Origin: Gloeobacterales cyanobacterium
Lineage (GTDB): Bacteria; Cyanobacteriota; Cyanobacteriia; Gloeobacterales; PMM-0068
Direction of reading: 5' to 3'
Assembly: GCA_038245785.1 (NCBI GenBank)
Contig: JBBRSB010000004.1
Location: 32,001-96,000 of the forward strand
DNA length: 64,000 nt
Part shown: piece by piece, positions 27,563-35,071 of the stretch
How positions within the stretch are numbered: the first letter of the stretch is position 1
How the letters are laid out: the number at the start of each line of letters is the position of its first letter
The notes under the pieces: generated by a model
Told to the model about the DNA's origin: nothing
Databases searched by the model: none
What the model saw: only the letters and a program-made list of their open reading frames with translations
Translations under genes and position numbers: made by a program

Positions 27563-28465
27563 CTATTCTGATTTTTTCCAAAGCACTTGGTCACGCCAGT
27601 CAGTAGGAAACCCCATATTTTTACTGGGCAAAGAAGGGTGTTTCTCGATTAGGGAAGCAAGTCGATCAGCCCAGTGAGAATTACCTACAATTTCCTTTAA
27701 CAGTATCTGAACAACTACTGCCTGTGCATAAAATCTGTCATTCTCCTTTAAGTAAGTTCGGTAACTATTAGCAATAAGTGGTTTGATTGTAAACCTGCGA
27801 TTCCACAGCCTTGAATGATGTGCACAAAGATTTCTCAGATACGAAATCGTACGCAGCCAAGATCTCATGACTTTGTCGTCCAAATTAAATGTGCTAGCTA
27901 TTTCTTTCTGCTCTGGAAGATGAAGGAATTTATATATTTGTGACACTGTACCAAAAGATAGCACTTCAAAAATCATCCAACTCGGCGGCAACTCAGGGTA
28001 ACCATATGTTTCATAGTAGTGCCGAATAAATGGCTGCTGCGCAGTAGCCACTTTTTCATACCCAACTTCGCGTTTAACTATTCCCAAAAATTCATCATGC
28101 CTAAATTCAGCTTGAAACAAGTTTTTATCCATAAACCAATGAGGATTATGTTTTATGCTCAAAGTATCACTTACAACAGCACGAACTGCTATTTCGATAC
28201 GCTCAAGTGCATCCATAACTAGTAGACGCAGTTTGCGATCGAAGACGTATAAATCCAAAACGTTGTCAAATTTCGTGTAAGGCTTGAACCTCCGAGATGT
28301 AGTTCCATTTTGAAACGGTAAAGCATAGCCTGAAAGGCGATAATAGCCTATAAATCTGAGATAATACTTTGCTTTTTCTCTATCCTCTATAATTAGCCCG
28401 CTTGATAGGAGTAAGTCAACTTGTTGTTCAAGGTTGAGTGCTGGCTTATCAAAATTACTGGACAT
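27563..28465 (-). CDS. Abi_2 / AbiF-AbiD-family HEPN ribonuclease
   Basis: IGYYRLSGY, LYVFDRKLR, PPSWM..EVLSFG and the HEPN motif RNLCAHHSRLWNR. Confidence 0.93.
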   Translation of the reverse strand: MSSNFDKPALNLEQQVDLLLSSGLIIEDREKAKYYLRFIGYYRLSGYALPFQNGTTSRRFKPYTKFDNVLDLYVFDRKLRLLVMDALERIEIAVRAVVSDTLSIKHNPHWFMDKNLFQAEFRHDEFLGIVKREVGYEKVATAQQPFIRHYYETYGYPELPPSWMIFEVLSFGTVSQIYKFLHLPEQKEIASTFNLDDKVMRSWLRTISYLRNLCAHHSRLWNRRFTIKPLIANSYRTYLKENDRFYAQAVVVQILLKEIVGNSHWADRLASLIEKHPSLPSKNMGFPTDWRDQVLWKKSE

Positions 28466-28590: not shown

Positions 28591-28969
28591 TGGTGGAGCT
28601 GACGGGAGTCGAACCCGTGTCCATCCGTAGCTATTAGACTCCCATTCATTCACAGGCTTAGCCTCTTTAACCCCAGAGACCGGGCGCTTCGTACCCAAAA
28701 GCGAAGGGTTTCCCTAACTGTTCTTAAGTCGGTATCCGTCAGGACTATACCAACAGCATCCGATGGGGGTTTGCTTAAAGCCTTATCGGCGTTAACTTTA
28801 AGCCTCTCACACAAATTAAGGCAATTTGTGCTTACGCGGCCAAGGCCACCTTACGAGAGAAAGGAACGAAGTTGTTCGCATTTACTGTTTTGAACTGATT
28901 TTACGGGATCGGATCACTCCCGGCCTGCAGAGAAGCGGTTCGCTAGAATGTCGAAACCGTGACAGCCCC
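28591..28969 (-). ncRNA. ssrA: tmRNA
   Basis: 5' GGGGCTGTCACGGTTTCGAC and 3' TTCGACTCCCGTCAGCTCCACCA; tag frame ANNFVPFSRKVALAA-stop. Confidence 0.97.
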
Positions 28970-31742: not shown

Positions 31743-32870
31743 CTAATACATCTCATACTTGAGAAAAGTACAAGCTAGGGATCCGTTATAGACAGGAATA
31801 CGTCTAGAAGCTTTGAGACCGACTCGTTTGGCGAGCTCTTTATTACCCGTCAAAACAAAGGCGGTCCATCCTTTAAAGCGTTGCTTGAAGATGTCCCCTA
31901 AAGATTTATAGAGGCTTCCCAATTCTTCAGCATTTCCTAGTCGTTCCCCATACGGAGGATTACAAATTAGGATGCCCGTTTCAGTTGGAGCTTCTATATC
32001 CATTAGGCTAGTTTGTGTGAAGATTACCTGGTCGCGTAAGCCACAGAGCGTAGCATTGGTGCGAGCTTGGTCAAGAACTTCTGCATCACTATCACTGCCT
32101 AAGATTGGACTTCCGAACGTAGCACCTTCTCCCCGCGTAGCTTGCTCGGTTAGTTCTTGCCACAGGAGTTGGTCAAAATCAGGCCAGCCAAAAAAGCCAA
32201 AATGCTCACGGAATGATCCAGGCGCGATGTTCAAAGCTTTTAATCCCGCTTCTAAAGGAAGGGTGCCTGAACCACAGAGTGGATCGAGAAAGGGAATTCC
32301 TGGCTTCCATTCCGCTAAATCAAGTAGGGCCGCCGCCAGTGTTTCTTTGAGCGGAGCAGCTCCCATAGCAGGGCGATAGCCTCGGCGGTGAAGACTTTCT
32401 CCAGAGCTATCCAGGCTCACAATACAACGGTCCCGATGGATATGGACATTCACCCGTACATCCGGCAAATGGGTATCGATGCTGGACCGCTCACCCTGAG
32501 TATCTCGCTGCTGGTCTACAATCGCATTTTTAACCTGTAAAGCCGTGAAGTGGGTATGGTTTAACTGGCTGCTGCCGCTACCCGTACAATCCACAGCCAA
32601 GGTATGAATAGGCGTTAGATATTCTTCCCAGTCGATTTTTTGGACTTCTCGGTAGAGCGTTTCTGGATCGGAGCAGGCAAATGCCCGAATAGGAACCAAA
32701 ACCCGAAAGATCAACCTTGCCCAAAGATTCACCCGGTATAAGAGTGCTTTATCTCCTTTGAAATGTACGCCCGTGAAATCCTCCCGGATATCCTTAGCTC
32801 CTAAAGTTTCTAATTCCTTTGCCGCAAGCGGTTCAAGGCCTCGGGCAACGGTGGCAAAGTAAGAATTCAT
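31743..32870 (-). CDS. THUMP-domain RNA methyltransferase (RlmL/YpsC-like)
   Basis: YFATVARGLE, SLHRRGYR, APLKETLAA, DPLCGSGT and NPPYGERL; ATG 32870 preferred as start. Confidence 0.92.
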   Translation of the reverse strand: MNSYFATVARGLEPLAAKELETLGAKDIREDFTGVHFKGDKALLYRVNLWARLIFRVLVPIRAFACSDPETLYREVQKIDWEEYLTPIHTLAVDCTGSGSSQLNHTHFTALQVKNAIVDQQRDTQGERSSIDTHLPDVRVNVHIHRDRCIVSLDSSGESLHRRGYRPAMGAAPLKETLAAALLDLAEWKPGIPFLDPLCGSGTLPLEAGLKALNIAPGSFREHFGFFGWPDFDQLLWQELTEQATRGEGATFGSPILGSDSDAEVLDQARTNATLCGLRDQVIFTQTSLMDIEAPTETGILICNPPYGERLGNAEELGSLYKSLGDIFKQRFKGWTAFVLTGNKELAKRVGLKASRRIPVYNGSLACTFLKYEMY

Positions 32871-32959
32871 GAAATCTATAAACCAGCAGCGTGATCTTGC
32901 TCTCTCACCATAGGGCAAACCTGTTACGCTGGATCTACAACCCAATAACGGAGTAGGTC

Positions 32960-33184
32960 ATGGCACAAGAAGCTTCCTGGCGTGCCGGGGGAAGGTCCAA
33001 ACCAGGGAAAAATAAGTCCCACCACAATACGCCCCGTCGCCATCAGCAGCATATCCAAAAAATTAAGAATGCTGTGAAGCATTTCAAAGACCGCCCAGTT
33101 GAGGGCGGTTTTTTAATGGGTAACTTCCCAGAGTTTGTTGCTGGCCAAGAACGCCACCTGACTGCTATAGCAAGTAATATTTGA
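32960..33184 (+). CDS. Small basic protein with an internal terminator; candidate alternative ribosome rescue factor
   Basis: GGAGTAGG ribosome-binding site, a K/R/H-rich N-terminal 45 aa, and a terminator hairpin inside the ORF. Confidence 0.6.
   Translation: MAQEASWRAGGRSKPGKNKSHHNTPRRHQQHIQKIKNAVKHFKDRPVEGGFLMGNFPEFVAGQERHLTAIASNI
33090..33114 (+). terminator. Intrinsic terminator located inside the 32960-33184 ORF
   Basis: ACCGCCC-agttga-GGGCGGT followed by TTTTT. Confidence 0.8.
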
Positions 33185-33230: not shown

Positions 33231-34120
33231 ATGCCAACGTATGACCTATACTCAAAGCGAAAAAAGCGAAACCGAGGTGATGTTCCAGAGGTCTTTCAAT
33301 ATGAAAACTTTCCTGATCCTTTTCGTCAGCAGGTAATGCATATATTAATGGATCTATTTCCAGTTCCGGAAAAAAAGAGAGAAGAATACTTCAAGAGGAT
33401 TCACGATATTTTATGCAGAGAGTATGGATTAAAAGAGCTTAACCAGGTAAAAGGCTATAAAGATAGAGTGCAATTTTTTTTATTAAGTTGTGAGGATATT
33501 GAGGTTCTTGACAAGTTCAGTGCTCATTTAAATACTATGAAGATATTAGACAAGATGAATTGTATGAACTGGTAGACAGCTTAAAAGGCAATGATAAACC
33601 TAAAGAAATGAAAGAAGAGCATAGAATAGGCTATCAGCTTGAGTCAGGAAAGATTATTCGTATTGACTCAAAATTTATGCATAGTGAGGTGGTTAAACCG
33701 GCTCTCACTGTCTTGGCTGATAATATGTATAAAGGTGCCAATGATGAATTTCTAAAAGCACATGAGCACTATCGGCATGGCAGGTACAAAGAATGTTTGA
33801 ATGAATGTCTTAAATCTTTTGAAAGCACTATGAAAGCTATCTATACAAAGCGTGGTTGGTCCTATAACGAAAAAGATACTGCACATAGGCTCATTGGTAT
33901 TTGCTTCCAGAACAAGCTGATACCTGATTATCTGCAATCGAAATTTAATTCACTTCAGTCAAGTCTTGAGTCTGGTATTCCAACGGTTAGAAATAGAACA
34001 TCTGCGCATGGTCAAGGCAGTGAAATATCTGAGGTCCCGAGTTATTTAGCTTCCTATTTGTTACATCTAACTGCGACAACCATTCTTCTTCTTGCAGATG
34101 CTGAGAAAGCTTTGCCTTGA
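33231..34120 (+). pseudogene. STM4504/CBY_0614-like (AbiJ-NTD plus HEPN) defence protein, frameshifted near 33512
   Basis: YSKRKK...PEVFQYE..P..FR.Q N-terminus, with C-terminal GANDEFLKAHEHYRHG and RNRTSAHG. The second frame is open upstream (VQCSFKYYEDIRQDELYEL). Confidence 0.75.
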
Positions 34121-34199: not shown

Positions 34200-34589
34200 T
34201 TACTTTAGGGCCAGAATTTCAGTCGCCACCTGTGAAATCTTTGCCAGCACTTTGGGGAGATTAGCGAATACCTCTTGATTGGTAAAACGCACTATCTGAT
34301 AGCCATAGGTTTCAAAGTGTTGGGTTCTAGCTGCGTCATATTCTGCTTGTTTATTATGCACTGGGCCATCGACCTCTACAACAAGCCGCACTTGAGCACA
34401 GTAGAAATCAGCGATAAAACGACCGAGGGGATGCTGAGACCGAAACCTCAAACTATTTAGTTGCCGATTTTTTAAAGCAGCCCAAAGTGTTCTCTCCGCC
34501 GCTGTCATATTTCTTCGGTGCCTCTGGGCTGCCGCTTCAATTTCAAGAGTTGTTCCCCGAATTCTGGCAGTTGTCTTAGTTCCATCCAC
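34200..34589 (-). CDS. DUF559 (Vsr-like) endonuclease
   Basis: RRNMTAAE..LW, FRSQHPLGRFIADFYC, VEVDGPVH and RFTNQEV motifs. Confidence 0.93.
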   Translation of the reverse strand: MDGTKTTARIRGTTLEIEAAAQRHRRNMTAAERTLWAALKNRQLNSLRFRSQHPLGRFIADFYCAQVRLVVEVDGPVHNKQAEYDAARTQHFETYGYQIVRFTNQEVFANLPKVLAKISQVATEILALK

Positions 34590-34632
34590 TAATACCTACC
34601 TCACAACACCTCAAAGTTATAACCCTGGTTGC

Positions 34633-34664
34633 TTCTCCCCCCAAAGTTGGGGGGCCGGGGGGGC
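34633..34664 (-). repeat. Right 32-bp inverted repeat
   Basis: Reverse complement GCCCCCCCGGCCCCCCAACTTTGGGGGGAGAA is 30/32 identical to the left copy. Confidence 0.85.
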
Positions 34665-35071
34665 TACTCACCTGCTAATTTCAAAATATGCTGCCAATGC
34701 TCTTCTGAGACAGGCACAACGGATAGACGAGAAATACGCAGCAAGTCAAATCCTTCAAAGGCACTATCTGCTTTAATCTGCTGTAAAGTGACAGGCTGGG
34801 GCAAAGGCCGCGCTGCTCTTACATCCACAACCGCTCTCTTTTCTTCATTCAAACTAGGGTCTGGATAAGGCTCACTGATGACTTCGGCAATGCCCATGGC
34901 TCTTCGTTCATCGCCTGTATGGTAAATGAAGGCAAGATCACCGGGTTTCATTGTACGGATATGTTTGAGGGCTAGATTGTTGTTTACACCATCCCAAATC
35001 GTCTTTTGGTCTTGCTCTAGATCGGCATAGGAATAGACGTGAGGTTCACTTTTTAGAAGCCAGTAGGCCAT
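34664..35071 (-). CDS. EVE-domain protein
   Basis: YWLLKSEP, WDGV.N and RLSVVPV motifs. Confidence 0.95.
   Translation of the reverse strand: MAYWLLKSEPHVYSYADLEQDQKTIWDGVNNNLALKHIRTMKPGDLAFIYHTGDERRAMGIAEVISEPYPDPSLNEEKRAVVDVRAARPLPQPVTLQQIKADSAFEGFDLLRISRLSVVPVSEEHWQHILKLAGE

Follow-up and report, generated by a model that had tools for sequence, protein, structure and literature searches.

Introduction

Ribosome rescue factors that depend on release factors are listed, in the available text of PMC8012679 and PMC8874680, only for some proteobacteria (ArfA and ArfT) and for Bacillus (BrfA), and the same texts predict that more small rescue factors are hidden. As far as PMC6881298 and PMC8012679 describe them, BrfA and ArfA are small basic proteins that are expressed by way of an internal terminator or a non-stop mRNA and that carry an unconserved tail. 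A close counterpart of the gene analyzed here is the RF2-dependent factor BrfA (YqkK) of Bacillus subtilis, which it resembles in encoding a small basic protein over about 70 codons, in having a terminator inside the coding region, and in the tmRNA tagging expected of its product (from the sections seen of PMC6881298). The non-stop gating of ArfA and BrfA is known; what is new, as judged by comparative analysis, is a family with a conserved non-stop design in cyanobacteria.

A 74-codon ORF with a predicted in-frame terminator

We analyzed a window of 64,000 nucleotides from a Gloeobacterales cyanobacterium (contig JBBRSB010000004.1, positions 32,001 to 96,000). On its forward strand an ORF of 74 codons runs from ATG 32960 to TGA 33182-33184 (32960..33184), with a Shine-Dalgarno-like GGAG at 32950-32953, 6 nt 5′ of the start codon; GGAG is also found upstream of both homologues in the same genus. 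Within the reading frame lies a predicted intrinsic terminator (33091..33114, forward strand), composed of a 6-bp GC stem (CCGCCC at 33091-33096 pairing with GGGCGG at 33103-33108), a 6-nt loop (33097-33102) and a U6 tract (six T at 33109-33114). The end of the stem is separated from the stop codon by 73 nt, and the main product is predicted to be a non-stop polypeptide of 50 to 52 residues. A sequence-only reading of this stretch had placed the ORF, the ribosome-binding site, a basic N terminus and a perfect GC hairpin with a U tract about 70 nt before the stop, and all of these are where it put them. RNAfold gave a free energy of −20.2 kcal/mol for positions 33075-33125 (z −3.84), and 1 of 200 shuffled sequences was as stable. 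A stock terminator scan of the window did not list the hairpin at 33091..33114, probably because the stem can extend into the U tract. Perfect-stem hairpins followed by U5 number 57 in the whole genome, and the window gene provides the only case of a short ORF with a Shine-Dalgarno sequence and an ATG that stays open through the hairpin.

The two parts of the encoded protein differ in character. Residues 1 to 51 have a pI of 11.5, with 12 Lys and Arg and 5 His residues, and residues 52 to 74 a pI of 5.4. The conserved basic core corresponds to codons 1 to 44 (32960..33091, forward strand), with W7 and G16 conserved in an extended N-terminal part and a basic helix at residues 19 to 44; AlphaFold2 predicted a low-confidence coil for residues 1 to 18 and the helix with confidence. 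The unconserved tail with the first in-frame stop (33115..33184, forward strand) resembles unselected sequence. Among 13 closely related proteins (query included; 55 to 97 residues in total), the first ~53 residues are shared and nearly identical, and the tails are unrelated beyond the part of the protein that the hairpin and the U tract encode. This pattern excludes a sequencing error or a chance ORF. Between the window gene and two genomes of the same genus the core shows a pS of 0.41 to 0.44 and a pN of 0.03 to 0.04.

A widespread family of small basic proteins

A profile built from six sequences matched 19 of 301 genomes sampled at class level, six of them weakly. Three weak matches (L020, L023 and L025) were due to chance and were dropped; the other three (L021, L022 and L024) are real members and opened up a large mainstream branch of the family. 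Larger profiles found the family in 183 and, in a second search, 185 of these 301 genomes, with one copy in each apart from three genomes of the second search. In a sample of the phylum, 119 of 401 genomes carried it, and all matches listed fell within the same class. The gene was found in none of 30 genomes of one family of small-genome cyanobacteria, all 30 of which have ArfB. A protein database contained 1747 clusters of the family; the best 120 lack a Pfam domain and, where NCBI names were given among them, bear those of cyanobacterial hypothetical proteins. The gene is easily overlooked or misannotated, because its random tail scatters the members over these 1747 "hypothetical protein" clusters.

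The core evolves under purifying selection, with a dN/dS of about 0.17 over 92 low-divergence pairs and identities of 0.81, 0.88 and 0.51 at the three codon positions. Absence of translation, which would have told against the sequence-only reading, is thus not what the substitution pattern suggests, since the ORF evolves as a protein. All in all, the sequence comparisons establish a real, widespread and uncatalogued gene family, mostly present in single copy. In one member (L124, in genome G073) the core is interrupted by an in-frame TAG, and one TAG also occurs in the ArfB gene of that genome; judging from the sequences, these are assembly errors or pseudogenes.

Database searches gave the family no name. 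The conserved core comprises 44 to 47 residues with a net charge of +10 to +16. The window protein had no match in Pfam, PHROGs or the named clusters of the ESM Atlas, 11 members had none in NCBIfam, and a mainstream member matched only unnamed ESM Atlas clusters, at values under 0.9. The family profile matched no PDB sequence at E values up to 10, rescue factors included, and a Foldseek search with the predicted model returned no match. Matches of members to Syntaxin, DUF4202 and DUF6800 were discarded as composition effects. Prediction of a complex with domains 2 to 4 of the RF2 from the same organism scored 0.00, a value that carries no weight either way. No published description of the family was found in the literature searched, which was mostly open-access main text. 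Norf1, which is AtpTheta, was considered and rejected.

The window gene belongs to a divergent branch of 13 sequences, and a mainstream-only HMM did not include it in the 10 best segments of its genome, so its link to the family rests on other tests. Alignment of the branch and mainstream profiles gave a probability of 92% (E value of 6.6e-7) and a score of 31.7; the best of 60 column shuffles reached 18.6, and a DUF6800 decoy scored 11.2. In 95 of 96 loci the top-ranked ORF for the branch HMM was the mainstream one. Intermediates connect the two groups (L026 to L047, z 12.1; window protein to L026, z 8.4), and genomes with the branch form have a single family match each. Homology of the window gene to the mainstream family is therefore, on these comparisons, highly probable. 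The terminator layout is already visible within the branch alone.

Conservation of the predicted in-frame terminator

The layout was studied in 109 loci, namely the 30 best of the 183-genome search and 79 chosen for genus spread. A hairpin with a U tract precedes the stop codon in 103 of them. Of the remaining six, three stop right after the core, in one the core contains a TAG, and in two the hairpin fails the scan. Strict terminator criteria were satisfied by 96/109 family loci and by 6/400 control windows from CDS interiors (38/400 under lax criteria), with windows of 200 nt for the family and 140 nt for the controls. Among 31 further loci outside the profile, 23 have an in-frame terminator, 6 are short and stop-bearing, and 2 are long without a match. 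Homologues that stop upstream of the hairpin, which the sequence-only reading had held against itself, are the exception: the stop is downstream in 126 of 140 host loci, a figure to which related genomes contribute non-independent samples. By our own count, roughly 30 of the sampled families show the layout.

Sequence, frame (31, 34 and 38 loci) and distance to the conserved Trp (120 to 223 nt) differ among the hairpins, arguing that the structure rather than the peptide is conserved. The linker between core and hairpin is variable and rich in Asn, Gln, Ser and Pro. Its 1936 codons in the 103 terminator loci contain no in-frame stop, which is so by construction; counted together with the three early-stop loci, 103/106 are open. 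In dinucleotide shuffles of the linker, 33 stops were expected and 74.8 ± 4.0 of the 103 frames remained open. Past the U tract, stops are equally dense in the three frames (148, 180 and 169), and the tail has a mean length of 18.7 codons, compared with about 19.8 expected at random. The sequence-only reading had proposed checking whether conservation stops at the intragenic terminator; it ends at the hairpin, followed by random-like tails. From these comparisons we conclude that the in-frame terminator structure is conserved and under selection.

Two loci (L112 and L131) have a longer in-frame hairpin, of 55 nt and about −52 kcal/mol, which would be long enough for RNase III, as in arfA. In 50/109 loci a tRNA-Leu(CAA) gene directly precedes the family gene on the same strand, at 20 to 32 nt in 20 of them. 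An Rfam search of 20 loci found no family other than tRNA, and no conserved partner gene besides tRNA-Leu was seen among host loci; of the 30 preceding ORFs that were scanned, 3 encode an M48 peptidase.

Phage, plasmid and stop-bearing host copies

A 47-residue member searched against 50,697 phage records gave 8 matches, all in cyanophages (6 distinct; E values of 0.004 to 0.1), and it also matched one Gloeobacter plasmid. Five phage loci that we read score 41 to 47 bits on the mainstream HMM and have normal stops at 41 to 52 residues; in S-SSM4, a tRNA-Val gene is immediately 3′ of the family gene. IMG/VR yielded 80 loci with a search pattern that was built from phage-type sequences and therefore biased the set toward that type; 79 are complete, and 73 of these encode 50 residues or fewer. 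A terminator-scan match was obtained in 7 loci (5 have a long tail, and in the other 2 the hairpin is right at the end), tRNA genes are near 9/80, and one weak match of 412 residues is probably not a family member. The viral forms, which mostly stop after the core, show that the core by itself is the protein and that the role of linker and terminator is regulatory.

In five viral loci (L224, L225 and L230-L232) an in-frame hairpin, with TTGACA in its loop region, is combined with a long tail; instead of a terminator, such a hairpin may be a promoter element. The record of ORF039 of phage A-HIS1 (L218) notes similarity to A-HIS2 ORF059 and to Acaryochloris marina AM1_2888, which may be a named host locus of the family. 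A literature search for AM1_2888 brought up two papers, both unrelated.

Nine host loci also stop right after the core (3/109 and 6/31). These copies (L052, L088, L104, L184, L187, L204, L209, L212 and L213) encode 41 to 50 residues; two are second copies, one is on a small replicon, and some resemble the phage type. Loss of trans-translation was considered as a reason for the normal stops and rejected, SmpB being present in all three such genomes tested. No common neighbor of the stop-bearing copies emerged among the 50 of 187 candidate ORFs scanned.

Comparison with known rescue factors and other small basic proteins

The family differs from BrfA in architecture. As far as PMC6881298 describes it, BrfA is a product of about 62 residues with N-terminal helices, a KH motif and a β-strand that it adds to RF2, whereas the cyanobacterial proteins have a coil followed by one long C-terminal helix, a core of 44 to 47 residues and no conserved KH. 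That motif, which ArfA and BrfA have in common near the C terminus, occurs in 0/91 mainstream members and 4/13 branch members, the window protein among the latter. BrfA is confined to Bacillaceae in the available description; that description and the empty PDB profile search would separate the family from it indirectly.

ArfA (PF03889), the RF2-dependent factor of E. coli, shares with the family the non-stop expression predicted for it and a poorly conserved, dispensable tail, and its residues 27 to 41 align with a KGKG-like basic Gly-rich segment of mainstream members. The C terminus of ArfA, however, is a loop, and that of the family a predicted helix. The alignment of the two profiles had a probability of 6.5% (hhalign), with a score reached by 4 of 100 shuffles, and PF03889 did not match the family gene in five genomes at E values up to 10, in agreement with the sequence-only reading, which had seen no clear similarity to ArfA. 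The segment KG[KR]GG[ST] occurs in 83/91 mainstream members, in 0/13 sequences of the window branch, and is absent from most phage copies; it resembles the KGKGS segment of ArfA and the KKGGS segment of ArfT (bioRxiv 10.1101/465609, partial text). ArfT of Francisella, which works with RF1 or RF2, is a basic protein of about 40 residues, near in size to the stop-bearing phage forms. According to the portion seen of bioRxiv 10.1101/465609, arfT lacks the internal terminator that the family has, and the ArfT motif is near the C terminus, unlike that of the family, which is in mid-protein before a 20-residue helix.

ArfB (NF006718) has its own GGQ hydrolase domain, and the family core has no RF-1 domain. 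Among the 301 genomes, 91 have both genes, 94 the family gene only, 67 ArfB only and 49 neither. Mutual exclusion was looked for and not found (Fisher p 0.16), and the family does not replace ArfB. The ribosome-associated protein Ssr3189/cS24 (COG5794) is likewise small, basic and found across cyanobacteria. In the text available (PMC13640635) it is described as abundant, present in picocyanobacteria and encoded beside an RRM gene, with its helix in the first 26 residues, and the word "terminator" is absent from that text; by these described features it was judged to be different. DUF6800 (PF20607) is a short basic helix with weak matches to 21/104 members (best E value of 0.002), and no member reached its curated cutoff. 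It is encoded by a separate gene in the window genome, its genes end in normal stops as read by eye, and the profile-profile probability is 0.7 to 2.8%. DUF6800 genes (L135, at G000:C1:320276-320401 on the reverse strand, and L136-L148) were found in 14/14 genomes of the order to which the window genome belongs and in 0/27 other members of the class that were searched. By the tests run on these sequences and profiles, the family is not ArfA, ArfB or DUF6800; BrfA and ArfT are excluded only indirectly.

A candidate back-up rescue factor gated by trans-translation

The in-frame terminators (103/109 and 23/31 loci), the conservation that ends at the hairpin, the random tails and the viral stops together make it very likely that the family is expressed from a non-stop mRNA under the control of tmRNA, and comparative sequence data strongly support a regulation that works like that of BrfA. 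RNA polymerase would terminate at the in-frame hairpin, giving a stop-less mRNA and a product of 50 to 52 residues. Ribosomes would stall at the 3′ end of this mRNA, and tmRNA-SmpB would tag the product for degradation, such that the protein would accumulate only when trans-translation is overloaded or lost. The accumulated protein might then fill the empty mRNA channel and activate RF2 or RF1. Phage copies and some plasmid or secondary copies, with a normal stop after the core, would be made without the gate.

The sequence-only reading had proposed a release-factor-recruiting rescue factor made from a non-stop mRNA. Its regulatory half is strongly supported by the comparative evidence from 126/140 loci, and its functional half is, by analogy, the likeliest reading. 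We consider it reasonably probable that the family is a cyanobacterial back-up rescue factor gated by trans-translation, and a strong candidate for that role, on well-founded grounds of analogy. Against this speak the insignificant homology to ArfA, the missing KG[KR]GG[ST] in the window protein and most phage copies, the unconserved KH, the predicted C-terminal helix in place of the ArfA loop, the empty PDB and fold searches, the nine host loci with a stop right after the core, and the coexistence with ArfB. A wider proposal, to which we give somewhat less than even chances, is that of an independently evolved release-factor-recruiting factor that spans basal and crown cyanobacteria, is gated by tmRNA in hosts, and has been captured by cyanophages, which dropped the gate, to free host ribosomes from truncated mRNAs in infection, even in picocyanobacterial hosts in which no chromosomal copy was found.

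The gate could also serve a ribosome binder that works without a release factor, plugging the mRNA channel or the subunit interface and so damping initiation, putting ribosomes into hibernation or splitting them, or passing on those that have stalled to another pathway once trans-translation is saturated. The evidence for gating (103/109 and 23/31 loci) is identical for such a protein, its long basic helix is more reminiscent of the SmpB and ArfB tails that bind the channel than of ArfA, and the family coexists freely with ArfB. Nevertheless, we find it rather unlikely, as ArfA and BrfA, both characterized and both with such a layout, recruit RF2 in the accounts available (PMC6881298, PMC8012679), and the ungated phage copies would better suit a factor that sustains translation than one that silences it. 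A tmRNA-gated sensor with a non-ribosomal output, for instance an RNA- or DNA-binding regulator or a protease modulator that reports the capacity for trans-translation, strikes us as less plausible still. A small basic protein modeled as a coil and a helix could bind any nucleic acid, and there is no conserved partner gene but tRNA-Leu; yet no regulator domain was found in Pfam, NCBIfam or PDB, and the informative neighbors are tRNA genes (50/109 host loci and 9/80 phage loci).

It is also conceivable, with a low probability, that an ordinary small basic protein, perhaps ribosome-associated, lost its stop by drift ahead of a normal terminator, often that of a tRNA-Leu unit, with tagging being incidental or termination leaky. 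Short stop-bearing forms that look intact do exist, and tRNA-Leu(CAA) is 20 to 32 nt upstream in 20 loci. Drift, however, would bring stops back into the rapidly evolving linker, where about 33 are expected and none is found in 103 loci, with 3 early-stop loci in 109; the layout persists without the tRNA in some lineages, including that of the window; and in the order of the window genome the similarly basic DUF6800 gene has a normal stop, as read by eye. That there is no protein gene at all, the locus being a non-coding RNA, a chance ORF or a sequencing error, agrees with the lack of a name in any database searched. This explanation is largely refuted and scarcely credible given the codon-position identities (0.81, 0.88 and 0.51), the dN/dS of about 0.17 and the 1747 protein clusters, and given that Rfam recognized no family but tRNA in 20 loci.

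As to the preferred reading of a gated rescue factor, ArfB was undetected in 143 of the 301 sampled cyanobacteria, about half, and 94 of these carry the family gene. The family thereby names a specific candidate gene for surviving overloaded trans-translation in cyanobacteria with no detected ArfB. That host copies are gated and phage copies bear a stop suggests an undescribed way for phages to act on host translation.

Genomic neighborhood and translation genes

The window genome, which is 98% complete, has tmRNA, SmpB, RF1 and RF2; ArfA and ArfB were looked for in it and none was found. Its RF2 (L179) is divergent, at 62 to 71% to 28 relatives, and has a Phe in the switch-loop region where most relatives have a Trp. 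The role of this Trp is described in the available text of PMC6881298. The tmRNA gene, the presumed regulator, lies at 28591..28969 on the reverse strand, 4 kb upstream of the ORF; their closeness may be due to chance.

The divergent neighbor of the ORF encodes an RlmL-like RNA methyltransferase with a THUMP domain (31743..32870, reverse strand; PF22020, PF02926 and PF01170) and is not conserved in this position outside the genus. Its start is probably ATG 32870 rather than TTG 32945 (ORF 31743-32945, reverse strand), since counting from that ATG puts the beginning of the RlmL_1st domain at residue 4; the two divergent starts are then 89 nt apart. The tmRNA gene is immediately followed downstream by an Abi_2 family gene (27563-28465, reverse strand), which may mark an element integrated at ssrA. 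An AbiJ_NTD4/DUF7014 (HEPN-like) gene appears to be split over two frames on the forward strand (33231-33575 and 33560-34120), with profile positions 1 to 92 in the first ORF and 121 to 150 in the second, and is possibly a broken defense gene. Downstream of the window gene, on the opposite strand, genes for a DUF559 endonuclease-like protein and an EVE-domain protein occupy positions 34200-35071.
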